From Candidatus Micrarchaeota archaeon (lineage in GTDB: Archaea > Micrarchaeota > Micrarchaeia > Micrarchaeales > CABMGC01): a DNA stretch of 64,000 bases. The notes beneath the pieces were generated by a model that saw only the letters and a list, made by a program, of their open reading frames with translations, searched no databases and was not told the origin of the DNA. The position numbers and the translations under genes were made by a program. The stretch covers positions 1,438-65,437 of the forward strand of contig JAJZZD010000005.1 of NCBI GenBank assembly GCA_021797745.1, written 5' to 3'. Positions 43,626 through 53,902 of the stretch are shown here, one piece after another; within the stretch, counting starts at the first letter, position 1; every line of letters begins with the position of its first letter.

Positions 43626-43688
43626 AAGTATTTAAATGAGGCTTTGAACTTCTTTTACATTCCTCTATTTGCCGCGAAAGCAGCAGCC

Positions 43689-44438
43689 TCATTCCAGCTC
43701 AAGCACTATCGGCGCATGGTCTGACCCCGTTACATTTTCCAATATCTTTGAATCGGTTACGTTCTTCGCGAGCCTTTCGGAAATTACCGCATAATCTATG
43801 CGCCAGCCTATGTTTCTTTGTCTTGCAAGGCTCCTATAAGTCCACCACGTATAATTTCCGCCGCCTTTTTTGAACATTCTGAATGTATCAACATATCCTC
43901 CTTTCAGGAATTCGGTCATCCACTTTCTTTCCTTCTCTGTGAACCCCGCATTTCCTTCGTTTTCCTTGGGCCTTGCTATGTCTATTTCTTCGTGCGCAAC
44001 GTTGAAGTCGCCACAGATTACGACAGGCTTTACTTTCTCCAATTCATGTATGAATTCTGCGAATGCACTGTTGTACTGAAGCTTGAAATCCAGCCGCGAC
44101 AATTCCCTGCGCGAATTGGGAAAATAGGTATTTATTACAAAAAAATCTTCGAGCTCCAACGTCATTGTCCTAGCTTCTGAATCAAATTCTTCTTTGCCGA
44201 TTCCGTAGCTTATAGAAAGCGGCCTTATCTTAGTTAAAGCCAGAAGTCCGCTGTAGCCTCTTTTTGCAGCAGGATACAGGAAGCTAAGGTAACCATTGCC
44301 GGCCAGTTCTTTAGGAAGTACGTCCGCTTTTACCTCCTGAAATAATAGCACATCATATTTCTGTGAATTGACAAGCCCGGCCAAGCCCTTTTTTACCGCG
44401 CTTCGTATGCCGTTAACATTCCAAGAAAGAATTTTCAA
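43689..44438 (-). CDS. xthA: Exodeoxyribonuclease III / AP endonuclease
   Basis: MKILSWNVNGIRS...LLFQEVK...GDFNVAH...SDHAPIVLEL. The TTG start overlaps the upstream stop (TTGA). Confidence 0.92.
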   Translation of the reverse strand: MKILSWNVNGIRSAVKKGLAGLVNSQKYDVLLFQEVKADVLPKELAGNGYLSFLYPAAKRGYSGLLALTKIRPLSISYGIGKEEFDSEARTMTLELEDFFVINTYFPNSRRELSRLDFKLQYNSAFAEFIHELEKVKPVVICGDFNVAHEEIDIARPKENEGNAGFTEKERKWMTEFLKGGYVDTFRMFKKGGGNYTWWTYRSLARQRNIGWRIDYAVISERLAKNVTDSKILENVTGSDHAPIVLELE

Positions 44439-44740
44439 CCACGCACCTGCTGTTTTCTTGCTATCGTTACCCTTCCTCTCCTTAACTCCTCGCCGAGCCG
44501 TTTAAGAGTGGCCATATCGGACAGGCCGCCCAGGGAAAAGAAACTAGTTCTCTGCCTGCCGAAAACCCTTAATGCGTGCCTAATGTCTTTTTTTAAGTCA
44601 CCAGTAACTTTGTCTATTGTAATTCTCAGCTCACCGTCTTCCTTGCCCGCAGTATATTCCCATCCGCTTCCAGTGTCTACGACTACTATTTTTTCAGCAG
44701 CGTCAGTTTTTCCTGATCTCACAACATTAGTTATTCTCAA
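44435..44740 (-). CDS. Hypothetical small protein, translationally coupled to xth
   Basis: 101 aa with a TTG start. No family recognised. Confidence 0.45.
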   Translation of the reverse strand: MRITNVVRSGKTDAAEKIVVVDTGSGWEYTAGKEDGELRITIDKVTGDLKKDIRHALRVFGRQRTSFFSLGGLSDMATLKRLGEELRRGRVTIARKQQVRG

Positions 44741-44842
44741 AACATCACAAATTAATCGCGCAGTTCTTGCTTATTAGATTTTCCAAGAAAACAGAGCCGA
44801 ACATTTCCTAAGCTATTGCGCAATCTGAACGAATGCCTGCAT

Positions 44843-44876
44843 AAAAAGAAAACTGCCGCAGCGTTGTGCTGCGGCA
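44843..44876 (-). terminator. Intrinsic-terminator-like hairpin plus T-tract at the end of the minus-strand ppdK gene string
   Basis: On the minus strand the sequence is TGCCGCAGC-ACAAC-GCTGCGGCA, a perfect 9-bp stem, followed directly by TTTTCTTTTT. It lies 18 nt downstream of the stop at 44894. Confidence 0.55.
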
Positions 44877-44893
44877 AACGCACCTTTCTTCTA

Positions 44894-45067
44894 TTACTTG
44901 GACCCTCTTTCTTCCAGTGCCATCCAAACCAGGTCAGCAATAAGTATTATTGCACCTAGATATATCGGCAGGGGAAAGAATGCATACCCCGGGTATACAA
45001 GATAGATCCAGTACAGGTCAGCCAACAGGATTATTACTCCCATTAGCATTCCGAATCCAAATTTCAT
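44894..45067 (-). CDS. Small two-TM membrane protein
   Basis: 57 aa from the ATG at 45067 (MKFGFGMLMGVIILLADLYWIYLVY...LGAIILIADLVWMAL). The track's longer 90-aa version has an implausible N-terminus. Confidence 0.4.
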   Translation of the reverse strand: MKFGFGMLMGVIILLADLYWIYLVYPGYAFFPLPIYLGAIILIADLVWMALEERGSK

Positions 45068-45176
45068 TTCATTACCTGAAATACATACACGACAAACTTT
45101 AAATACTCTAATGCCACGCCTATCGTCAATAGGCATGCTCGCATGCCAATAACGACAGTGGCGCAATCCCAGATAT

Positions 45177-45773
45177 TTATTTCTGCAGCTCTGCCAGCAT
45201 GTTCTTTATAGCTTGCATTATTCGATTTATGGCTTCATCAGCAATTTTTCTATTATCCTGAGTCTCAGCCGGATTTTTTGCGTGAAGTGCGTCTTCTCCG
45301 ATCCATCTTTTTCCTCCCCCTGCAGCAACCATCTTTTCCAGTTTGCTGCTGCTTATCCTCATGGTGCTGCCCTCAAAATCAAAGAAATAATCGTCGTCGG
45401 TATCTACGCCATAAAGTTTCAGTATCTGTTCTGACTCGGACATGACCAGATAGCCCAATGATCCATACTGTGTTTTGAGTAATTCGCCGAAATCAGCAAG
45501 CAGTTTATTGAGAATTTCTTCCTTTTTGGCAACAGCCTGTTCCGGGCTCAATGTTTGTAGGTCCTTCATTTCTGGATTCTCAATTTCCTCAATATCTAAT
45601 TCAACTGACTGCACTCCGGTGAGTATTTCCAACTTTTCCTCCAGCGCTTTTATGTGGTTGATTAGCGGCTCGTTTTCTATGTTCTTGTATATTCGTTCGA
45701 TTTTTCCTGAGGCAGAATTGACTACTGTGGCTGCAGGCTTGCCTGTAAACTGTATTTCTTCGTTTGGATACAT
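45177..45773 (-). CDS. Acidic hypothetical protein
   Basis: 198 aa, downstream of ppdK on the same strand. The C-terminal half (GSLGYLVMSESEQILKLYGVD) faintly resembles a roadblock/LC7 fold, which is not sufficient for a call. Confidence 0.5.
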   Translation of the reverse strand: MYPNEEIQFTGKPAATVVNSASGKIERIYKNIENEPLINHIKALEEKLEILTGVQSVELDIEEIENPEMKDLQTLSPEQAVAKKEEILNKLLADFGELLKTQYGSLGYLVMSESEQILKLYGVDTDDDYFFDFEGSTMRISSSKLEKMVAAGGGKRWIGEDALHAKNPAETQDNRKIADEAINRIMQAIKNMLAELQK

Positions 45774-45855
45774 AAAATCAGCAAAATCGCATTTTGCACA
45801 ATCTGATTAATTTAGTCGATAGATATTTTATGTCGTGTGACAATAAGCTGCTACC

Positions 45856-48522
45856 TTAAACAGTGGACGCAGCAGCGAACTTTTTCTTAAGCTCCGCCTG
45901 CGCAGCAGCAAGCCTTGCAACCGGAACGCGGTACGGTGAACAACTCACGTAGTCAAGCCCCGTTTCGTTGAAGAACTCTATTGACTTAGGGTCTCCGCCA
46001 GTTTCCCCGCACACTCCGACAACTAACTTTTTGTTTTTGTCTTTTCCTTCTGAAGTGGCAATTGACACAAGTCTTCCCACGCCGTCGTAGTCCAAGGTTC
46101 CGAATGGATTTTCCGCAATTAATTTGTTTTCGATGTAAAACGGCATGAGTTTTGATTCCACATCGTCTCTGCTAAAGGCAAATGTCGCTTGTGTGAGGTC
46201 GTTTGTCCCGAATGAGAAAAAGTCGGCATACTCTGCAATTGTTTTTGCAGTCAATGCGGCCCTGGGCGTTTCTATCATTGTGCCAACTTTATAACTGATT
46301 GAAACTCCGTAGTCATTCAAAATCCTATCTGCAGTTTTCTCCACTATCTCGCGTGCCTTTCTAAATTCACCCACCGTAGCCACCTGCGAAATCATGATTT
46401 CGGGTTCGACGTCCACCCCATCTTTCTTAAGCTCCGCCGCAGCCTCCATTATCGCCTCAACCTGCATCACATATATCTCAGGATACATGAGCGAGAGCCT
46501 GACACCTCGCTGCCCCATCATTGGATTGTACTCCCTCAATTCATTGACGCGTCTGAGTACCTTTTCACTTTCTTTCAGCTCCTCACTCCCTTTTCTTTTC
46601 ATTCTGAGTTCAGTGACTTTTACTAGTATGTCGTCCAATTTCGGCAGGAATTCATGCAGCGGCACGTCAAGGAGCCTTATCGTGACGGGAAGGCCGTGCA
46701 TGGCTTTGAGTATGTTTTTGAAATCGCCCTTCTGCATAGGTTTTATTTCATCCAAGTACTTTCTCCTTTCCTCAGCAGTGCCCGCAAGTATCATTTTCCT
46801 GACGATGTCAAGCCTCTCCTGCACATTGAACATGCGCTCCGTCCTGTCAAGGCCTATTCCCTGCGCGCCGTTTTGCCTTGCCTTCTCTGCCATTTCAGGA
46901 GTATCTGCATTTGCCATTACCTGGAGCCTCCTGAACTTATCGGCCCATTCGAGCAGCGCGGCGACGTCGCCTGAAATTTTCGGTTCAACGAGCGGCATTT
47001 CGCCAGCGAACACAAGCCCGCTTCCCCCGTCTATTGTTATCATATCTCCTTTTTTGAGCGTCTTGCCTTTTACATTTAGAGAATCGCGCCGCACGTCTAT
47101 TTTCATTTCCTCCGCGCCAACTATGCATGGTTTGCCCATACCTCTTGTCACAACCGCCGCATGGCTTGTCATGCCTCCGCGGCTCGTGAGCACGCCATCT
47201 GCTGCCGCTATTCCTGCTATGTCCTCGGGCGTGGTTTCCGGCCTTACTAATATTATTTTCTCATTCTTTTTTCTTGCCGACTGTGCATCTTCTACTGTGA
47301 ACACTATCTTTCCTATCGCAGCGCCAGGAGCTGCAGGAAGCCCCTTAGCCAGCGGTTCTGCCTTCGCATTTTTGTCGATTTGTTTGTAAAGCAGCCTCTC
47401 CAACTGGCCTGTTTCCACCCTTAAAACCGCTTCCTCTTTCGATATTAATTTTTCTTTTGCCATGTCCAATGCTATTTTTACCGCCGCATTCGCCGTTCTT
47501 TTACCGTTTCTTGTCTGCAGCATGTACAGTTTGCCACTCTCAACAGTGAACTCTATGTCCTGCATGTCCTTGAAATGCCCCTCTAGTGTTTTGAAAATGC
47601 TCATTAATTCATCATAAGCTTTCGGGACCTGTTCTCTGAGCCTGCTGACAGGCTCCGGAGTTCTTATCCCTGCGACAACGTCCTCGCCCTGCGCCTTCAT
47701 CAGGAACTCCCCGTAAACCTTCTTTTCGCCAGTCGATGGGTCCCTGGTAAAAGCTACGCCCGTTCCTGATTTATCGTCGAAATTTCCATATACCATCATG
47801 ACCACGTTAACAGCAGTTCCAAGGCTGTCGGATATGTTGTATATCTTCCTGTACTCTATCGCGCGCTGGTTCCACCAGGAATTAAACACTGCGCCTATTG
47901 CCATCATAAGCTGCTCCCTCGGTTCTTGCGGCAGCTCCTTTCCAGTATCCTTCTTTATCAACTCCTTGTATCTTTTCACAACCTCTTGCCAGCCTTCCGC
48001 GCTGACGCTTACATCATTTTTCGCTCCTGACTCTTCCTTGTACCTTTCCAGTATCGTGTCGAACTTTTCTCCAGGAACATTCATTACTATCTTTCCAAAC
48101 AGCTGAATGAATCTGCGGTACGTGTCATATGCAAAACGCGCGTCGCCAGTCTTGCTAGAAAGCGCTTCTGCTATCCTGTCGTTTATGCCGAGGTTTAACA
48201 CGGTGTCCATCATTCCGGGCATCGACATCGGCGCTCCGGACCTGACAGAAACAAGGAGCGGTTTTCCGGCATCGTCAAACTTTTTGCCAGTATTCCTCTC
48301 AAGTTTCAAAACATTATTAAGAATTGATTTCTCAAGTTCAGGCCACATTCTCTTGCCTTTTTTGAAAAATTCGTTGCACATGTTAGTGGTTATTACGAAC
48401 CCTGCAGGCACAGGCAATCCGAGCTTTGTCATCTCGACCAGACCGAAACCCTTTCCGCCAAGGACTTTCTTGCTAATATCTTTTTTTGGTACCTCGTCGA
48501 ACAAGAACACTTCTGCTTTCAT
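45856..48522 (-). CDS. ppdK: Pyruvate, phosphate dikinase
   Basis: 888 aa. N-terminal ATP-grasp (GGKGFGLVEMTKLGLPVPAGFVITT), phosphohistidine domain (GGMTSHAAVVTRGMGKPC), and C-terminal PEP-utilising TIM barrel (FFSFGTNDLTQ, CGE). Confidence 0.96.
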   Translation of the reverse strand: MKAEVFLFDEVPKKDISKKVLGGKGFGLVEMTKLGLPVPAGFVITTNMCNEFFKKGKRMWPELEKSILNNVLKLERNTGKKFDDAGKPLLVSVRSGAPMSMPGMMDTVLNLGINDRIAEALSSKTGDARFAYDTYRRFIQLFGKIVMNVPGEKFDTILERYKEESGAKNDVSVSAEGWQEVVKRYKELIKKDTGKELPQEPREQLMMAIGAVFNSWWNQRAIEYRKIYNISDSLGTAVNVVMMVYGNFDDKSGTGVAFTRDPSTGEKKVYGEFLMKAQGEDVVAGIRTPEPVSRLREQVPKAYDELMSIFKTLEGHFKDMQDIEFTVESGKLYMLQTRNGKRTANAAVKIALDMAKEKLISKEEAVLRVETGQLERLLYKQIDKNAKAEPLAKGLPAAPGAAIGKIVFTVEDAQSARKKNEKIILVRPETTPEDIAGIAAADGVLTSRGGMTSHAAVVTRGMGKPCIVGAEEMKIDVRRDSLNVKGKTLKKGDMITIDGGSGLVFAGEMPLVEPKISGDVAALLEWADKFRRLQVMANADTPEMAEKARQNGAQGIGLDRTERMFNVQERLDIVRKMILAGTAEERRKYLDEIKPMQKGDFKNILKAMHGLPVTIRLLDVPLHEFLPKLDDILVKVTELRMKRKGSEELKESEKVLRRVNELREYNPMMGQRGVRLSLMYPEIYVMQVEAIMEAAAELKKDGVDVEPEIMISQVATVGEFRKAREIVEKTADRILNDYGVSISYKVGTMIETPRAALTAKTIAEYADFFSFGTNDLTQATFAFSRDDVESKLMPFYIENKLIAENPFGTLDYDGVGRLVSIATSEGKDKNKKLVVGVCGETGGDPKSIEFFNETGLDYVSCSPYRVPVARLAAAQAELKKKFAAASTV

Positions 48523-48561
48523 TTATTCACCATCAATCGAAACACAACCGATATATTTGTA

Positions 48562-48702
48562 TTATCTTTTCCCTTCCGCGCATACGGTACACATTCCCTT
48601 GTTGCTTATGTAGTGGAGTTCGCAGACATGTTTGCCGCATAGCGTGCATACATGCAGGCTTGGCATGCCGCATATGTAGCATAAAGTATGTACGTCAGGC
48701 AT
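48562..48702 (-). CDS. Small Cys/His-rich zinc-finger protein (46 aa), not in ORF track
   Basis: Manual translation gives MPDVHTLCYICGMPSLHVCTLCGKHVCELHYISNKGMCTVCAEGKR. The pattern CxxC-x8-CxxC-x3-C-x2-H-x9-CxxC looks like a HIT-like or treble-clef finger. It lies 40 nt upstream of ppdK on the same strand. Confidence 0.45.
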   Translation of the reverse strand: MPDVHTLCYICGMPSLHVCTLCGKHVCELHYISNKGMCTVCAEGKR

Positions 48703-48801
48703 GATATCACGGGCGTTGCCAGAATACCTGCTCATAAATAAGCAGTGAATTACTTACTTGGCTAACTAATTGTTTGCGAATAACCTTTTACATGTTTGCT
48801 G

Positions 48802-49422
48802 TCATTTCGTTATTCCACGTTTCTCGAGACTCTTTACCTCTCTCTCCAACTCAAAGATGCTCTTTTCCAGCACATAGCGCAGGAACACAACGATAATGAC
48901 TCCCAGCACAATCACTAATATGCCGCCATAGCTTATGTGAAATAATACAAAGGCAAACGCTATGGCCGCAGCAGGAGGATGGTCGCTTCTTGTGATAACG
49001 CTTAGCACTATCACTCCGAACAAAACAAATGCGGAAATGATATATATGGGAAACACTGCTAGACCAAGGCTTCCAAGAAATCCTATTACTCCCGCTATTA
49101 AATAACTTTTAACGAACTTTCCTATTTTTGCCATTTTTGAATTTGGCATTATGAACATTATGAAAATACTGCTTGCAAAAGAAGAAAATATAACTGCGGA
49201 TGTGCCAACGCCAGATATCGCATCTATCTTAAAATAAACAAGCAGGAAGACAAGCATTGAAAGTGCAACCGATGCCAGAATCGCAGGAACTATCCGTATT
49301 TTCATTCTGCCTAAAGCTTCCCTGACGTTTTCAGGCTCGTGCTCTATGTATCCTTTTACTGTTTTGTAACTATTTGTGTTTATTCCGTCTATTCTGTGCC
49401 TGCGACTTTTTATTTTTGCCAT
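48802..49422 (-). CDS. HPP-family membrane protein
   Basis: 4-5 TM with the eponymous motif in TRSDHPPAAAIAFAFV. Confidence 0.7.
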   Translation of the reverse strand: MAKIKSRRHRIDGINTNSYKTVKGYIEHEPENVREALGRMKIRIVPAILASVALSMLVFLLVYFKIDAISGVGTSAVIFSSFASSIFIMFIMPNSKMAKIGKFVKSYLIAGVIGFLGSLGLAVFPIYIISAFVLFGVIVLSVITRSDHPPAAAIAFAFVLFHISYGGILVIVLGVIIVVFLRYVLEKSIFELEREVKSLEKRGITK

Positions 49423-49479
49423 ACTTTCTATTTGAATATCTTTATTTATTAAAGCAGATGCGAATCCATTGCTTAATTG

Positions 49480-49690
49480 TCAGAACCGGCGCAATCGCAA
49501 GAATATAACAATTATGGCTCCGGATACAATGACTATTATTCCAGAGTAGTCTCTGCGGAATAGAACGAATGCAAATGCCAGAGCCGCGGCAGGCTGGCGG
49601 CCGCTCCCATCACCGTGCTCAACACTATGATTCCGCGCAATACTGGCGTCGAAACAATGAATAATAGAAATATTGCCAGAACCTCATTGA
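49480..49690 (-). pseudogene. Truncated, frameshifted paralog of the adjacent HPP gene (C-terminal about 70 codons only)
   Basis: Minus-strand frames read LAIFLLFIVSTPVLRGIIVLSTVMG, then after a frameshift RQPAAALAFAFVLFRRDYSGIIVIVSGAIIVIFLRL*. The intact neighbour reads LAVFPIYIISAFVLFGVIVLSVITRSDHPPAAAIAFAFVLFHISYGGILVIVLGVIIVVFLRY. The HPP motif is lost. Confidence 0.65.
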
Positions 49691-49706
49691 TTTGTTTTAA
49701 TTCTGC

Positions 49707-49913
49707 TCAATCTATGCGCAAAACCAATACCATTACTTCTTTGCCTTTATATTGGTCTAGTTCTTTGCCCGCCACTCTTATTTCGGCGTACGTATACTTT
49801 TTTTGCCCGCGTTTTATGTTTTTGACGTCAATTCTTTCATTTACTTTTGTTCTAAAACTTAGAAATGGGCAACCTTTTTTGTCTGTTTCTATTTTGTTTT
49901 TTGTGTTGGTCAT
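49707..49913 (-). CDS. Small basic hypothetical protein
   Basis: 68 aa with an ATG start (MTNTKNKIETDKKGCPFLSFRTKVNERIDVKNIKRGQKKYTYAEIRVAGKELDQYKGKEVMVLVLRID). An AT-rich TATA-like sequence lies upstream. No family recognised. Confidence 0.35.
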   Translation of the reverse strand: MTNTKNKIETDKKGCPFLSFRTKVNERIDVKNIKRGQKKYTYAEIRVAGKELDQYKGKEVMVLVLRID

Positions 49914-50576
49914 TAAATCACCGCAAAATATTCTACCAGAAAATTCATATATTATATATCTATCCGTGCTTCTTTATTCTGTAAGAAAGGCTTAAATATC
50001 CAAGTGTGTCAGTGTGTCAATAGTGGGTTGGTGGATGAAAGAAACTAGTAATGGTCGGACAGACGCCATGACATCAGAAGACGATAAAGGCTATAAAGAT
50101 CAAATAGAGGAGTGGCCGCGCAGAATCGTTTCATTGGAGAACGCGCGCGAAATATGGTGCTACCTTCTCCACGCGCGCCTGAATGGCGTTCCCCAAAAAC
50201 GGATAAGGTAACCATGAGCAGGCCTGTCGCACAGTACTTGCCCGTATCACCCAAGAGCACCGTCAGCAAGGCAGGTAATGCAAACTCTCTCCCGACCTTC
50301 AAAAGCGCACTAGAAGCGCACTTAGCAGCACCACGGGTAGAACGGCGTTATTACAGGGCCGCACGCCACAAGGCGAATTCGGCGTTTTGAAGCGTCTCTT
50401 GTAGACCCTGTGAAGGACCGCCTTGAGCTCTTCGAGCTTCGATTTGGGCAGGCTGTTGGCCAGCTCCTCCAACCGGCTTGAAAACTCGCTGAAGACGAAC
50501 ACCGAACCTGCGTTCCCTCGCGTTTTAACCATGCCGAGCCCGCCGTGAACGGACCCTCCGCTCCGAAGACAAAAAC

Positions 50577-50673
50577 TGGCGCCTTGGCCGGGATTCGAAC
50601 CCGGGTCTCAAGCGAGCTGCCGCCTAAAAAGGCGTTGACAGGCTCGAATGCTGGACCACTACACTACCAAGGC
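50577..50673 (-). tRNA. tRNA-Asp (anticodon GUC) with a 21-nt canonical-position intron and genomically encoded CCA
   Basis: Acceptor GCCTTGG/CCAAGGC, discriminator G, then CCA. The mature anticodon arm is CGAGC-CTGTCAC-GCTTG. T-arm CCGGG-TTCGAAT-CCCGG. The intron forms a textbook helix-bulge-helix-bulge-helix motif. Confidence 0.85.
50615..50635 (-). other. tRNA-Asp intron (ACGCCTTTTTAGGCGGCAGCT), position 37/38
   Basis: Central 4-bp helix CTGT/GCAG, 3-nt bulges CA|A and CT|C carrying the splice sites, and inner helix CGCC/GGCG with loop TTTTTA. Confidence 0.8.
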
Positions 50674-50941
50674 TTGGTTCAACCGTATTAAGCTTCAATG
50701 AAAGCAGCGTTAAAGATACTATCATGAAAGCTATGTTTGCTATTAGTATTGGAAAGGAATTTAATTCAATCCCATACACTATCCAAAGAGCAAACGCCGC
50801 AGACAGGAATATCAGCCACGAAACTGAAAGGTCTTTTGTGGACTTAGTCCTTGCTGCTTTTATTACCTGGGGGATATATGCTATTATGTTGAGCGCCCCT
50901 GCGGCAAAACCTATGAGTGAAATATAAAATACGCTTATCAT
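50624..50941 (-). CDS. PQ-loop / SemiSWEET-like 3-TM transporter
   Basis: IGFAAGALNIIAYIPQVIKAARTKSTKDLS carries the PQ motif, and there are three TM helices. The ATG at 50941 is preferred over the GTG at 50959. The last 50 nt, including the stop codon, overlap tRNA-Asp on the same strand. Confidence 0.55.
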   Translation of the reverse strand: MISVFYISLIGFAAGALNIIAYIPQVIKAARTKSTKDLSVSWLIFLSAAFALWIVYGIELNSFPILIANIAFMIVSLTLLSLKLNTVEPSLGSVVVQHSSLSTPF

Positions 50942-50973
50942 GAAATCACTGTTGCGCACGAATACGCTTGCAT

Positions 50974-51059
50974 TCCCGCTGGCCGGGGTCGAACCAGCAA
51001 CCTATCGGTATCTACTTTACAAGCTACAGCCGATCGCTCTGCCATTGAGCTACAGCGGG
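50974..51059 (-). tRNA. tRNA-Tyr (anticodon GUA) with a 14-nt intron at 37/38
   Basis: The C1:G72 acceptor pair (CCCGCTG/CAGCGGG) is the archaeal/eukaryal Tyr identity element. Anticodon arm ATCGG-CTGTAG|intron|A-CCGAT. T-arm GCTGG-TTCGACC-CCGGC. Discriminator A. Confidence 0.85.
51010..51023 (-). other. tRNA-Tyr intron (CTTGTAAAGTAGAT)
   Basis: Bulges AG|C and AT|A flank a weak central helix CTGT/GTAG (two G.U pairs). The inner part is only TT-GTA-AA, so the motif is a relaxed BHB/BHL. Confidence 0.7.
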
Positions 51060-51115
51060 TTTGGTATTTAATAACTGCAAGCAGTATATAAATATGTTCG
51101 TCGGTGTAAACTTTC

Positions 51116-53902
51116 ATGGCGATAAAAAGGCAGCAAAAAGGAAGAAAAGAAGCTAATGTTTTGTTCAGCGAGGCGCAAAAATATACGGCAAAGCAGCAGG
51201 CCGAAACTGGCAAAAGGAAGGCGTATCTCACCCCCCTTACCTACTACCGATTCAAGGACATGGCACGGGCAGTAGTCAACAACAAAAATTTTGCCGACGC
51301 ACTTGCAACAACTTTCGCTTTCGCAAGCATATCTATCGCGTTTCCCTTCCTGCCTTTGCCTATTCTGATACCTTTTCTCGCTCTGATTTTCATAATAACT
51401 ATGCTGCACTCATTCATGGGCCTGATTACGCTGCTTTTCCTCTCGTTCTTCCCCATCATGTACCAAGCGCCTCTGCTTGCATGGATTTACGCGCTTTTCG
51501 TTTCTGCAGCATTGTTTGTCGGATATTACTTCTACCGCGCTATAACGTTCCTGTTCCTGCTGGTAGCACTGCCGCTGTCTTTCCTGGGTTATCTTCTTGA
51601 GCTGCCAATGTTTTTGCTAGCGATAATTATACTAGGTTTCAAGCGCGCAGTGGGCGTTACTATAGCCGCTCTTGTCATCCTTGTGGCAGTTTCAGGAATG
51701 TCAGGAATTCCAATAGCAGGTCCTTTCATTTACAATACTGCTGGGGCGCACGCCATGATAATGCAAGATGCGTCGTATGCCAGTTACGTGGTCCCAGTCA
51801 AACCTGTGCCTGTGCTGTCAAACATTACCGGCGCATTCTTCAGTTCACTCGGCTCGTTTTTCAGTCTTGGTGTCGCAGGTGGAATTTCGGATGCAATATA
51901 CTACGGACTAACTGCGCTTGGCTATGCATTCCCACTTTTCCTTCTTCAGCTCCTGATTTGGCTGGTTGTGATATTCGTAGTGCACAACTATGCAATCAAA
52001 AGCCGTTCCGCATATAAAGGTGCTGAATCGAGCCTTTTTGGATTCCTGATACCCGTAGCTTACTACGTGCTCGCATCAGTGACTTCGCTGCAGTACAACT
52101 ATTTGGTACTGGTGAGCTTCCTGATAACGCCGGCATTGTTTTTCTCTGCTGAGTTGTTTGGTGTAGATATAGTGAAGGCATTGGAGGTTATGAAACAGGA
52201 TGTGCTAGGCAAATTCGGCACTGCGTTCGAAGACCTGTCACACGGATCAAAGGAAACGCTCGACGATGTTGCCGATTACACTGAGACTAAGCGTGAAATA
52301 CGGATGGCGCTTTTGGCTCCTATAGAGCACAGGGAAATATCAGGTGCATACGGCGTAAAGCCGGCCAAGGGAATACTGCTTTTCGGGCCTCCTGGAACAG
52401 GAAAGACGCTTCTCATGCGTGCAATAGCAAACGAGGTAAGGGCGAGCTTCTTCTACGTGAAAACGTCTAATGTAATATCTCCGTATCCCGGAGAGAGTGC
52501 GCAAATGCTTTCGAAGATATTCACCACTGCCAAAAAGAACGCTCCGAGCGTTCTTTTCTTCGACGAGATCGACGCAATAGCGGGAAAAAGGGAGCAGGAG
52601 TCGAGCGAATCGTCAAGGGAGCTGATGACTGCTTTGCTGACAGAGATGGATGGGTTCAATGCAGTTTCGGGTGTGGCGATAGTGGGAGCAACAAACATAC
52701 CAAATGCGCTGGACAGCGCGATTCTAAGACCTGGTAGATTCGACAAAATTCTTTACATGCCACTTCCTGACCAGAAAGGAAGAGCCGAAATACTCCAGTA
52801 TTATTTTTCCAGACTGCCGGCAAGCAAGGACCTTGATTTCGACCAGCTTGCCTCGCTCACAAGCAGGTATTCAGGTGCCGACCTTAAGAACATTGCCGAT
52901 GAAACTGCGAGGCAGGTGTCTGAAGCTGCGATAGCGCAGAGAAAAGTGCTGATCATAACTATGAAAGATATAATCAAAACCATAAAATCAACAAAGCCAT
53001 CGACAACGATGTCGCAGCTTGAAGATTACACTAAATTCAAAGTTGACTACGAGAGGCGCGCCCATCCCGAAAAGTCAGTCGAAAACGAGGTTAGGCTGAA
53101 GATCGATGATGTTGTTGGTTTGGAAGAAGCGAAGAGAGCGCTTTATGAAGCTGTGGAAGTGCCAATTTTGCATCCTGACATGGTCAAAAAATACGATATC
53201 ACTAACATAAAAGGAGTTCTGCTTTTCGGACCTCCCGGAACCGGAAAAACTATGCTTCTGAATGCGATTGCAGGCGAACTTGAAGATGTGCATATATTCA
53301 AGCTTTCCGGCTACGACATAAGCAGGTACGGAATTGAAAAGGCGCTTGTTGTCATAAAAGAAGCTTTCGACAGGGCAAAGGAGAACACACCAGCCATAAT
53401 ATTTATAGATGAAATAGACGCGCTTGTGCCTTCAAGGGAAGATTCAAGTGAACTGGGAATACAGATAACGGGTGAATTTCTCGAAGAGTTCGACGCCATA
53501 AAGCCATCGAGCGGCATAGTAGTAGTTGGAATCACAAACAGGCCATATTCCCTGGATACTGCGCTTCTTAGGCCCGGCAGATTCGACAAACTCATACTCG
53601 CGCCGCCTCCCAACGCAAAGGAACGCGAGGAGATTTTCAGACGCAATCTCGACAAGGTGCCTCTTGAGAACGATGTCGATTTCGCCAAGCTCGCGCAGAT
53701 GACAGAGCAGTACACTGGAGCAGATATACAGAACATCTGCAGGCAGGCGAAGATGAATGCGCTTGAATCCAGCATGGAAAATGGCGCGTTCAAAATATCA
53801 TTGGACGAACTGCTTAAACTGCTGCAGAAAATCAAGCCGTCTGTTACTACGTACTCGATGCAAAAATATACTGCTTTCATGGACCAGTACGGACAGCGCT
53901 GA
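51116..53902 (+). CDS. Membrane-anchored tandem AAA+ ATPase (polytopic N-terminal domain plus Cdc48-like D1 and D2)
   Basis: Residues about 60-345 form roughly 9-10 hydrophobic helices. Two classical AAA modules follow: Walker A GPPGTGKT at about 52384-52407 and 53226-53249, Walker B FFDEID and FIDEID, and the second region of homology ATNIPNALDSAILRPGRFD and ITNRPYSLDTALLRPGRFD. There is no protease domain. Confidence 0.85.
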   Translation: MAIKRQQKGRKEANVLFSEAQKYTAKQQAETGKRKAYLTPLTYYRFKDMARAVVNNKNFADALATTFAFASISIAFPFLPLPILIPFLALIFIITMLHSFMGLITLLFLSFFPIMYQAPLLAWIYALFVSAALFVGYYFYRAITFLFLLVALPLSFLGYLLELPMFLLAIIILGFKRAVGVTIAALVILVAVSGMSGIPIAGPFIYNTAGAHAMIMQDASYASYVVPVKPVPVLSNITGAFFSSLGSFFSLGVAGGISDAIYYGLTALGYAFPLFLLQLLIWLVVIFVVHNYAIKSRSAYKGAESSLFGFLIPVAYYVLASVTSLQYNYLVLVSFLITPALFFSAELFGVDIVKALEVMKQDVLGKFGTAFEDLSHGSKETLDDVADYTETKREIRMALLAPIEHREISGAYGVKPAKGILLFGPPGTGKTLLMRAIANEVRASFFYVKTSNVISPYPGESAQMLSKIFTTAKKNAPSVLFFDEIDAIAGKREQESSESSRELMTALLTEMDGFNAVSGVAIVGATNIPNALDSAILRPGRFDKILYMPLPDQKGRAEILQYYFSRLPASKDLDFDQLASLTSRYSGADLKNIADETARQVSEAAIAQRKVLIITMKDIIKTIKSTKPSTTMSQLEDYTKFKVDYERRAHPEKSVENEVRLKIDDVVGLEEAKRALYEAVEVPILHPDMVKKYDITNIKGVLLFGPPGTGKTMLLNAIAGELEDVHIFKLSGYDISRYGIEKALVVIKEAFDRAKENTPAIIFIDEIDALVPSREDSSELGIQITGEFLEEFDAIKPSSGIVVVGITNRPYSLDTALLRPGRFDKLILAPPPNAKEREEIFRRNLDKVPLENDVDFAKLAQMTEQYTGADIQNICRQAKMNALESSMENGAFKISLDELLKLLQKIKPSVTTYSMQKYTAFMDQYGQR

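Follow-up and report, generated by a model that had tools for sequence, protein, structure and literature searches.

In the 64-kb stretch of DNA analysed here (the window), a short gene of the SemiSWEET (PQ-loop/MtN3) family, resembling sugar transporters and located between tRNA-Tyr and tRNA-Asp genes of the same strand, reads through the 5' half of the tRNA-Asp gene and terminates inside the tRNA-Asp intron. The overlap is real, yet it is an ordinary mutational by-product confined to a single lineage. Taken as a whole, the account which we propose, i.e., a conserved array, a 1-nt deletion, read-through to a TAG in the intron, a neutral protein tail and, presumably, a shared transcript, appears quite probable.

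All three genes are encoded by the minus strand, in the order tRNA-Tyr(GUA) 51059-50974, SemiSWEET CDS 50941-50624 and tRNA-Asp(GUC) 50673-50577. The source genome belongs to the Micrarchaeota (DPANN). The features of the array are as follows.

51085..51095, minus strand: TATA-box-like ATATTTATATA at -36..-26 of tRNA-Tyr, putative array promoter
50974..51059, minus strand: tRNA-Tyr(GUA), found by ARAGORN with introns allowed; Rfam RF00005, 56.3 bits
50942..50973, minus strand: 32-nt spacer from the tRNA-Tyr 3' end to the ATG
50624..50941, minus strand: SemiSWEET (PQ-loop/MtN3) CDS, 105 aa as encoded
50688..50689, minus strand: inferred site of a net 1-nt deletion, AA, codon 86; ancestral Lys codon AAA/AAG
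50679..50681, minus strand: ancestral stop TGA, no longer in frame; ACCAA (50678-50674) is the 5-nt spacer behind it
50577..50673, minus strand: tRNA-Asp(GUC); 5' exon 50673-50636, 3' exon 50614-50580, encoded CCA 50579-50577
50615..50635, minus strand: tRNA-Asp intron, 21 nt, canonical 37/38 position, strict hBHBh'
50571..50575, minus strand: T5 run two bases past the tRNA-Asp CCA end, putative oligo-T terminator of the array

Re-analysis confirmed every coordinate given in the original prediction for the two tRNAs, the CDS and the intron, as well as its central claim that the CDS reads through the tRNA-Asp 5' exon and ends in the intron: the stop codon TAG (50626-50624) corresponds to nt 10-12 of the intron, and the encoded protein ends in ...LSTPF. 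The last 50 nt of the CDS had been assigned to the tRNA-Asp 5' exon plus intron, and the overlap, when re-measured, is indeed 50 nt long. Codon 90 (50674-50672) spans nt 1 of tRNA-Asp, whose DNA specifies residues 90-105.

Both tRNA genes exceed the gathering score (29) of the Rfam tRNA model RF00005, tRNA-Tyr with 56.3 and tRNA-Asp with 53 bits. According to ARAGORN, tRNA-Tyr contains a 14-nt intron (51023-51010); it has no encoded CCA, and a 3-4-3 BHB (bulge-helix-bulge) can be drawn for it but is weak (+0.8 vs MFE -7.6 kcal/mol, folded in isolation). As for the tRNA-Asp locus, ARAGORN calls it tRNA-SeC while the intron is present, and tRNA-Asp(gtc) once 50635-50615 is removed. Its BHB is composed of the 5-bp anticodon stem, the bulge CUC (3 nt), a 4-bp helix, the bulge CAA (3 nt) and a 4-bp inner helix, all 13 pairs being drawable as standard pairs (-14.2 kcal/mol), and thus has the strict hBHBh' form, defined by a 4-bp helix between two 3-nt bulges holding the splice sites (PMC4090602, PMC3239211). 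An alternative 17-nt intron (50635-50619), with which the variable loop would have 8 nt and the BHB would be relaxed, was ruled out by the alignment of orthologues and by the strict 21-nt BHB. The mature tRNA-Asp differs from that of the relative L091 by 3 nt, two of which make up a compensatory 27-43 pair. Seven of the seven relatives having this tRNA carry it without an intron. Micrarchaeum/ARMAN-2 possess intron-rich tRNA sets and the epsilon2 splicing endonuclease EndA (PMC3239211, PMC4090602), and lineage-specific gain or loss of tRNA introns, as in the window tRNA-Asp, is typical of this group. Like canonical archaeal tRNA introns, both introns of the window reside at 37/38, that of tRNA-Asp with the strict 3-4-3 hBHBh'. 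The tRNA-Asp intron itself is therefore ordinary, its sole oddity being the protein ORF that ends in it.

Judging by its sequence, the ORF is a real gene rather than a chance ORF, since residues 4-85 align to solved SemiSWEETs (9KAX, 4RNG, 4QNC, 5UHS, 4X5M; E from 7.5e-14 to 1e-9) and, with few exceptions among the best 150 HMMER matches, homology to the family stops at residue 84-86. The best structural match is 9kax_A (E=7.5e-14), residues 4-84 of the query covering residues 3-83 of the 86-residue chain. In Pfam, the protein matches PQ-loop PF04193 (E=6.3e-9, 35.9 bits at a cut-off of 22) and MtN3_slv PF03083 (E=3.7e-5, 24.1 bits at a cut-off of 23.7), and it keeps the PQ motif and 9/9 invariant alignment columns. 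Its hydropathy profile contains three hydrophobic stretches, the last one ending near residue 84. Residues 1-85 constitute the conserved 3-TM unit and residues 86-105 a frameshifted tail; the structure alignment and the HMMER domain end at 84-86 bear out the earlier statement that the three TM helices are finished ahead of the overlap. The window protein shares with the solved SemiSWEETs (86-100 aa) the single 3-TM PQ-loop unit and differs from them in the additional 20-residue non-homologous C-terminal tail, which brings its encoded length of 105 aa outside the SemiSWEET range of ~80-100 aa. The ORF starts with ATG at 50941, GTG at 50959 being an alternative start, and a Shine-Dalgarno-like GTGAT is located at 50949-50945, in the spacer between tRNA-Tyr and the ATG.

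The tRNA-Tyr / SemiSWEET / tRNA-Asp array, together with an adjacent divergent AAA ATPase gene, is kept in six other Micrarchaeota (L004, L091-L095), whose AAA ATPases are 54-58% identical to that of the window. Comparison of these orthologous loci placed the stop upstream of tRNA-Asp in all six: their SemiSWEETs consist of 85-90 aa and end at a stop of their own 16-47 nt ahead of the tRNA. Five of the six conform to the C-terminal consensus K[LI][KR][YF][GK] followed by the stop, from which L004 deviates. In the relatives, the starts as called give gaps of 1-16 nt between tRNA-Tyr and the CDS, and the most plausible starts give gaps of about 13-17 nt. No genus-level relative was found in the collections searched (word-indexed proteins, metagenome scan, AAA-anchored search), so the deletion discussed below is deduced from family-level relatives and not seen as a recent polymorphism. 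The word-indexed protein search with the window SemiSWEET returned an identical protein and three matches of ~50% identity (the best 52% over 61% of the query), while identities reached at most 43% for SemiSWEETs in the metagenome scan and at most 58% in the AAA-anchored search. Flanking tRNAs were absent at seven metagenome SemiSWEET loci (L080-L086, 36-43% identity, the weaker L087-L090 being left out); therefore the tRNA sandwich looks Micrarchaeota-specific rather than characteristic of SemiSWEETs in general.

The read-through is explained by a net 1-nt deletion three codons ahead of the ancestral stop. Insertion of one base at AA 50689-50688 changes the window C-terminus ...LKLNTVEPSLGSVVVQHSSLSTPF into ...LKLKYG with the stop TGA 50681-50679; the restored end is identical to the C-terminus of L092 and fits the consensus of 5/6 relatives. 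The C-terminal peptide is ...LNTVEPSLGSVVVQHSSLSTPF as encoded vs ...LKYG in the restored frame, in which the protein would have 87 aa, within the SemiSWEET length range, and its stop would lie 5 nt upstream of tRNA-Asp. The chance of finding Y, G and a stop at the aligned positions in an alternative frame was estimated from codon counts as ~1e-4 to 5e-4. The tail had been regarded in the original prediction as a probable by-product of losing a stop, and this loss can now be pinned to the net 1-nt deletion at AA 50689-50688, by which TGA 50681-50679 is bypassed.

The compact array conserved in these Micrarchaeota comprises a TATA box, an intron-bearing tRNA-Tyr, a short spacer, a SemiSWEET gene for 85-90 aa, a further spacer and tRNA-Asp. 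In the lineage of the window, the Lys codon AAA, three codons ahead of the stop, would have been reduced to AA (50689-50688), moving the frame past the TGA. Two of the three reading frames of a tRNA are normally closed by the universal UAGs at nt 8-10 and 13-15. This also holds for the window tRNA-Asp, whose 5' half is free of stops in the shifted frame alone. It is solely the C at nt 21 of the window tRNA-Asp that lets the ORF extend into the intron; T at this position gives an in-frame TAG in most relatives. The shifted ORF would thus continue through the tRNA-Asp 5' half to the TAG in the lineage-specific 21-nt BHB intron, and its product should be a protein of 105 aa with the intact three-helix unit (1-85) and a 20-residue tail dictated by the tRNA sequence. 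Most likely, this tail is a neutral by-product and was not selected.

It is unlikely that the missing base is a sequencing or assembly indel, in which case the true sequence would be AAA at 50689-50688, the CDS would end in ...KLKYG at TGA 50681-50679 and there would be no overlap. The original prediction had allowed for a sequencing error hiding an earlier stop; no in-frame stop is present before 50673, and the part of this objection that stands is the indel at AA 50689-50688, still a rival to a genuine deletion. It would account for the frame-corrected C-terminus being exactly as in the relatives, for the position of the site in a short A homopolymer and for the extended 105-aa protein forming a singleton cluster alone. 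However, the identical sequence is found in the NCBI MAG GCA_027335715.1 and in the k-mer-based Logan assembly of SRR13235777, which may share reads, and the assembly does not seem to be indel-prone, since the neighbouring long genes of AAA (928 aa) and PPDK (888 aa) are intact. In addition, a homopolymer of 2-3 nt is, to our knowledge, no typical site of short-read errors, which we count against an assembly indel.

If the deletion is genuine, the gene might be on the way to becoming a pseudogene, with the frameshift as its first lesion and no functional protein expressed. The frameshift relative to the family consensus, the fluidity of the slot behind tRNA-Tyr, where SemiSWEET is replaced by HIT in L003, L006 and L096, and the altered spacer/promoter region upstream of tRNA-Asp agree with such decay; nevertheless, the replacement affects just 3 residues at the very end, the 3-TM domain is whole, passes the Pfam cut-offs, retains the PQ motif and every one of the 9 invariant columns and can be aligned with solved SemiSWEETs from end to end, and neither the start codon nor the SD-like GTGAT has been lost, which makes decay quite improbable. 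The non-functionality of the ORF, raised earlier as something that would undermine the prediction, was checked on its sequence side: the domain is intact, and the SemiSWEET array is conserved in six relatives.

A selected overlap, in which translation of the CDS or removal of its stop by RNase P would couple the transporter to tRNA-Asp maturation, or in which the tail would be functional, is very improbable. The CDS and the tRNA are apart and the intron is absent in 6/6 relatives, the tail is fully set by the tRNA sequence, and one base brings back the ancestral end. It is true that the intron provides the stop, without which the ORF would run to 131 aa, but chance alone should place an in-frame stop in ~1 of 4 introns of 21 nt (7 codons at 3/64 each, our own estimate); the apparent loss of the A/T box of tRNA-Asp, which would make this tRNA dependent on read-through, could also be seen as a sign of selection. 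As for programmed ribosomal frameshifting at codon 85-86, which would restore ...KYG and the stop so that the tail would rarely be made, it is extremely improbable and was rejected on the sequence, as the slippery site is absent: a -1 shift would be needed, neither an X XXY YYZ heptamer nor a downstream structure save the tRNA itself occurs around 50695-50680, and the ancestral Y-G-stop, intact in the alternative register, is equally expected after a recent deletion.

Returning to the array with a genuine deletion, its transcription can be considered. An A/T-only box (TATATTAATAT-like) is present at -41..-23 of tRNA-Tyr in 10/10 Micrarchaeota loci and is likely to be the promoter of the array. 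The 32-nt spacer between tRNA-Tyr and the ATG is too short for an archaeal promoter; lacking the space for a separate promoter, the CDS is most likely co-transcribed from the tRNA-Tyr promoter and would be released by tRNA 3' processing. As to tRNA-Asp, an A/T-only box at -32..-23, found in 6/6 SemiSWEET relatives, is missing in the window, where a weak box TCTTTAACG occupies -43..-35. This box could give tRNA-Asp its own promoter, because it sits where three other tRNAs of the window carry A/T boxes (-44..-35). No T5 run lies in the array upstream of the tRNA-Asp intron, the only ones being in this intron (50630-50626) and directly past tRNA-Asp. Given that there is no intervening T5 run and that the A/T box is missing, tRNA-Asp is probably made, partly or wholly, on the same read-through transcript. 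Archaeal transcription is terminated at oligo-T stretches, which is the basis for reading the T5 run 50571-50575 as a putative terminator. Such runs also occur inside tRNA introns of the relatives, which shows that termination at T5 is not strict here.

On a shared transcript, the RNase P cut between 50674 and 50673 would leave an mRNA of 89 codons without a stop; no in-frame stop exists upstream of 50626, the 89 codons before the RNase P site included. Folding of the pre-tRNA would, in turn, have to compete with ribosomes translating the tRNA 5' half. The CDS begins 13-32 nt past tRNA-Tyr at all loci compared, the HIT loci included, and at ten Micrarchaeota loci tRNA-Tyr is directly followed by a protein gene, a conserved placement which suggests mRNA expression driven by the tRNA promoter. 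A more far-reaching proposal, which we consider rather doubtful, is that tRNA-Tyr of Micrarchaeota is a conserved promoter and processing module: any CDS located 13-32 nt behind it, be it SemiSWEET, HIT or a small ORF, would be made solely as part of a tRNA-mRNA precursor, from which tRNase Z would free it. The window tRNA-Asp would then be promoterless and the transcript mitochondrion-like, and RNase P would routinely make a stop-less mRNA needing either aPelota/ABCE1 rescue or translation that outruns processing.

Mitochondrial 'tRNA punctuation' is genome-wide and conserved, with UAA completed by polyadenylation. It was reportedly described by Ojala et al. in 1981. As in mitochondria, same-strand tRNAs flank the mRNA of the window almost without a spacer, excision by RNase P/RNase Z would set the mRNA ends, and tRNA 5' cleavage would leave the mRNA without a complete stop; unlike in mitochondria, the overlap is limited to one locus of a single lineage and originates from a frameshift. 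We know of no stop-completing mechanism, established or suggested, for this locus. Mitochondrial CDS-tRNA overlaps with incomplete stop codons are also treated in PMC5474008. In Thermococcus kodakarensis, tRNA-Lys is located in the 5'-UTR of TK0306, and their co-transcript was shown by dRNA-seq (PMC4247193). In both archaea the tRNA is immediately 5' of a same-strand CDS and release of the mRNA requires tRNA processing, whereas the shared promoter, demonstrated by dRNA-seq in T. kodakarensis, is in the window deduced from spacing and promoter motifs, and the T. kodakarensis locus has no downstream tRNA overlapping the CDS. A strong tRNA promoter also drives a downstream protein gene in thrU-tyrU-glyT-thrT-tufB and tyrT-tpr of E. 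coli. In contrast to the window, these tRNA-mRNA operons are bacterial and intronless, and their CDS do not overlap the tRNA.

Past tRNA-Asp there is a block of ~6.9 kb absent from the relatives. That a mobile element has integrated at tRNA-Asp was not supported, although short att sites might have escaped this comparison: neither tRNA half recurs in the 64-kb window at <=3 mismatches, and the ORFs adjoining tRNA-Asp gave no PHROG or Pfam matches. A structured ncRNA in the GC-rich region 50150-50600 was rejected as well (fold z-scores -0.18 and +0.50; no Rfam match at E<=1 in this region).

Nothing in the present view of tRNA or mRNA processing is changed by this locus, which is a clean example of how, in a compact DPANN genome, a single indel makes a CDS overlap a tRNA; its mild novelty consists in the conserved gene slot led by tRNA-Tyr. 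As to annotation, it is worth flagging that the 105-aa protein deposited in databases carries tRNA sequence read as protein, and that tools of the ARAGORN type take tRNA-Asp for tRNA-SeC.

The array consists of three adjacent minus-strand genes within window positions 50571-51095, and the original prediction, according to which a SemiSWEET (PQ-loop) coding sequence placed between tRNA-Tyr and tRNA-Asp terminates inside the tRNA-Asp intron, was confirmed in full after its coordinates had been rechecked. The overlap is real, confined to one lineage and explained by one indel. The features, including a mechanical ORF downstream of tRNA-Asp, are as follows:

51059-50974, minus strand, tRNA-Tyr(GUA) (ARAGORN with introns allowed; Rfam RF00005, 56.3 bits)
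51023-51010, minus strand, tRNA-Tyr intron, 14 nt (ARAGORN with introns allowed)
ATG 50941 (alternative GTG 50959) to TAG 50626-50624, minus strand, SemiSWEET/PQ-loop ORF (ORF call and Pfam)
50673-50577, minus strand, tRNA-Asp(GUC), encoded CCA included (Rfam, 53 bits)
50635-50615, minus strand, tRNA-Asp intron, 21 nt (orthologue alignment and strict hBHBh')
50299-50532, minus strand, mechanical ORF, 77 aa (no Pfam/PHROG hit)

Unless introns are allowed, ARAGORN returns tRNA-Tyr only as an undetermined tRNA; it calls tRNA-Asp tRNA-SeC(tca) both in the default mode and with the intron option (SeC/undetermined unless the intron is removed). Automated annotation of the source genome probably contains errors at both genes. 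Aligned with seven orthologous tRNA-Asp genes, the window gene opens a 21-column gap, which speaks against an intron of 17 nt. Removal of 50635-50615 leaves a 73-nt tRNA plus CCA, differing from that of the relative L091 at three positions only, two of which are the compensatory 27-43 pair (T-A in the window, A-T in the relatives; tRNA-Asp alignment A2). The pre-tRNA with the 21-nt intron forms a strict hBHBh' motif (5-bp anticodon stem, 3-nt bulge CUC, 4-bp helix, 3-nt bulge CAA, 4-bp inner helix), matching the published definition (PMC4090602, PMC3239211). The alignment and this motif bear out the cut sites proposed for RNase P (50673) and EndA (50635/50615). The tRNA-Asp intron is an ordinary canonical bulge-helix-bulge intron and that of tRNA-Tyr is probably another, and the lineage is known for intron-rich tRNAs (PMC3239211). 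Compared with its relatives, this tRNA-Asp has four lineage-specific traits (sites at 50577-50579, the CCA, and 50653): the encoded CCA, the gained 21-nt intron, C for T at nt 21 and the swapped 27-43 pair. By these traits the locus has been unusually active in evolution.

Orthologous loci were located via the AAA ATPase gene, divergently oriented to tRNA-Tyr, whose nearest relatives are found in Micrarchaeota/Micrarchaeia MAGs at an identity of only 50-58%; no genus-level relative was found in genome, metagenome or protein collections. This neighbour (51116-53902, 928 aa), which combines a long polytopic membrane N-terminal half with two AAA (CDC48-like) ATPase domains, is conserved at this level throughout Micrarchaeota and is a useful synteny anchor. 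Six Micrarchaeota loci (L004, L091-L095) share the array, with a tRNA-Tyr intron of 25-30 nt. In all six the SemiSWEET has 85-90 aa and its own stop, and tRNA-Asp lacks both an intron and an encoded CCA. The comparison of relatives, proposed as a check in the original prediction, thus placed the stop upstream of tRNA-Asp in 6/6 cases, at a distance of 16-47 nt.

The orthologues indicate how the stop was lost. Five of the six end in K-[LI]-[KR]-[YF]-[GK]-stop (LKLKYG*, LKLKYK*, MKLRYG*, FKIRYG*, MKLKFG*), while the window reads AAG CTT AAT ACG GTT GAA CCA A/GC..., i.e., K L N T V E P S... One base added to AA at 50689-50688 turns this into AAG CTT AAA TAC GGT TGA (K L K Y G stop), so that the read-through is best explained by a net 1-nt deletion three codons ahead of the ancestral stop TGA (50681-50679), which lies 5 nt (ACCAA) ahead of tRNA-Asp. 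The restored protein has 87 aa, its final six residues being identical to those of L092, and the chance of Y, G and a stop falling at the exact aligned positions of an alternative frame is roughly 1e-4 to 5e-4 by our codon-count estimate. The earlier guess that the tail is a by-product of stop loss therefore holds. An assembly indel at the deletion site, instead of a genuine mutation, is improbable: two assemblies, MAG GCA_027335715.1 (contig DAHWHL010000006.1) and a Logan contig from SRR13235777, agree in encoding the identical protein and in the DNA of the whole array, though possibly from the same reads, and the long neighbouring genes are intact.

The ORF exceeds the curated Pfam cut-offs for PQ-loop (E=6.3e-9) and for MtN3_slv (E=3.7e-5), and five solved SemiSWEET structures (9KAX, 4RNG, 4QNC, 5UHS, 4X5M; 86-100 aa) align with its residues 4-85. 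That the gene is a pseudogene in this lineage is unlikely, since the frameshift swaps only K-Y-G for a 20-residue tail, neither the PQ motif nor any of the nine columns invariant among the orthologues is lost from residues 1-85, and an SD-like GTGAT precedes the ATG. With few exceptions among the best 150 HMMER hits, family homology extends no further than residue 84-86, and by SemiSWEET topology a tail beyond TM3 is likely tolerated. The predicted protein is an ordinary SemiSWEET carrying an accidental tail. A selected coupling device, or a functional tail, is very unlikely, as the overlap is absent from 6/6 relatives and one base reverses it; a programmed frameshift, with no slippery site present, is hardly credible.

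The shifted frame crosses into tRNA-Asp at codon 90, which straddles nt 1, and the overlap amounts to 50 nt, the stop TAG being nt 10-12 of the intron. UAGs conserved at tRNA nt 8-10 and 13-15 shut the two other frames, and a third TAG at nt 21-23 shuts the read-through frame in L004, L091-L093 and L095. Nt 21 is C in the window, L094 and L003, so that in the window the frame is open up to the intron TAG. Without the intron the ORF would extend to 131 aa; the chance of some stop in seven intron codons is about one in four by our estimate, so that nothing special has to be invoked for its place there. The reach of the shifted frame is an accident of the tRNA sequence.

As to transcription, tRNA-Tyr is preceded at -36..-26 by a TATA-like box of A and T only (51095-51085), with an equivalent TATATTAATAT-like box at about -36..-24 in 10/10 Micrarchaeota loci. 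The downstream CDS starts 13-32 nt past the tRNA-Tyr 3' end in all ten (in the window ATG 50941 is 32 nt past it; spacer 50942-50973), a gap too short for an archaeal promoter, so that this gene is most simply transcribed with tRNA-Tyr: it would be co-transcribed from the tRNA-Tyr box, and the mRNA freed by tRNA 3' processing. A tRNA-mRNA co-transcript is documented in T. kodakarensis (PMC4247193). An A/T-only box precedes tRNA-Asp at -32..-23 in 6/6 relatives with a SemiSWEET (that of L092 consists of Leu-Lys-Tyr codons). No comparable box was found at -32..-23 in the window, where, with a spacer of just 5 nt, the homologous TTAATA comes to lie at -18..-13. The weak TCTTTAACG at -43..-35 is a possible promoter box, since three other window tRNAs have boxes at -44..-35. 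Sense-strand T5 runs occur only in the tRNA-Asp intron (50630-50626) and two bases past the CCA (50575-50571). The TATA-like box, the short gaps, the missing tRNA-Asp box and the T5 placement together favour a single tRNA-Tyr/mRNA/tRNA-Asp precursor. If it exists, RNase P cleavage between 50674 and 50673 would leave 89 codons and no stop, as the original prediction argued, and the protein might then be translated before processing or from stop-less messages dependent on ribosome rescue; that the whole array in this genome is one processed transcript yielding such an mRNA is a tentative proposal, on balance doubtful. The array would then work like a miniature unit of mitochondrial tRNA punctuation, and likewise like known tRNA-mRNA operons. 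Several of these genomes have T5 runs within tRNA introns, as in the tRNA-Tyr introns of L091 (~2909) and L093 (~2905); either Micrarchaeota RNA polymerase terminates weakly at T5, or the cells tolerate some premature termination within pre-tRNAs.

The 3' flank of tRNA-Asp in the window is a synteny breakpoint, since in the relatives (L091-L095) the CBS-domain gene directly follows tRNA-Asp. Between the two lies a ~6.9-kb block (~43630-50576) with a 68-aa ORF, an HPP-family gene, pyruvate phosphate dikinase, three small ORFs and an Exo_endo_phos gene. A second tRNA-Asp fragment, sought in the window as an integration scar, was not found. Directly downstream of tRNA-Asp, 50150-50600 has 55-58% GC against a background of 38-48% and no called gene; nothing in it matched Rfam at E<=1, both strands had fold z-scores near 0, and its mechanical ORFs are devoid of Pfam or PHROG hits.

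More interesting than the overlap itself is the gene slot behind tRNA-Tyr, conserved throughout Micrarchaeota, which suggests a tRNA-led transcription unit. Of the ten loci, seven hold SemiSWEET there and two (L006, L096) a HIT-family gene; in L003 a small ORF precedes HIT. In seven metagenome loci scanned for comparison (L080-L086), the SemiSWEETs had no flanking tRNAs. The HIT gene of the L096 slot is closely followed by a LAGLIDADG_3 homing-endonuclease-like gene (1605-2345).
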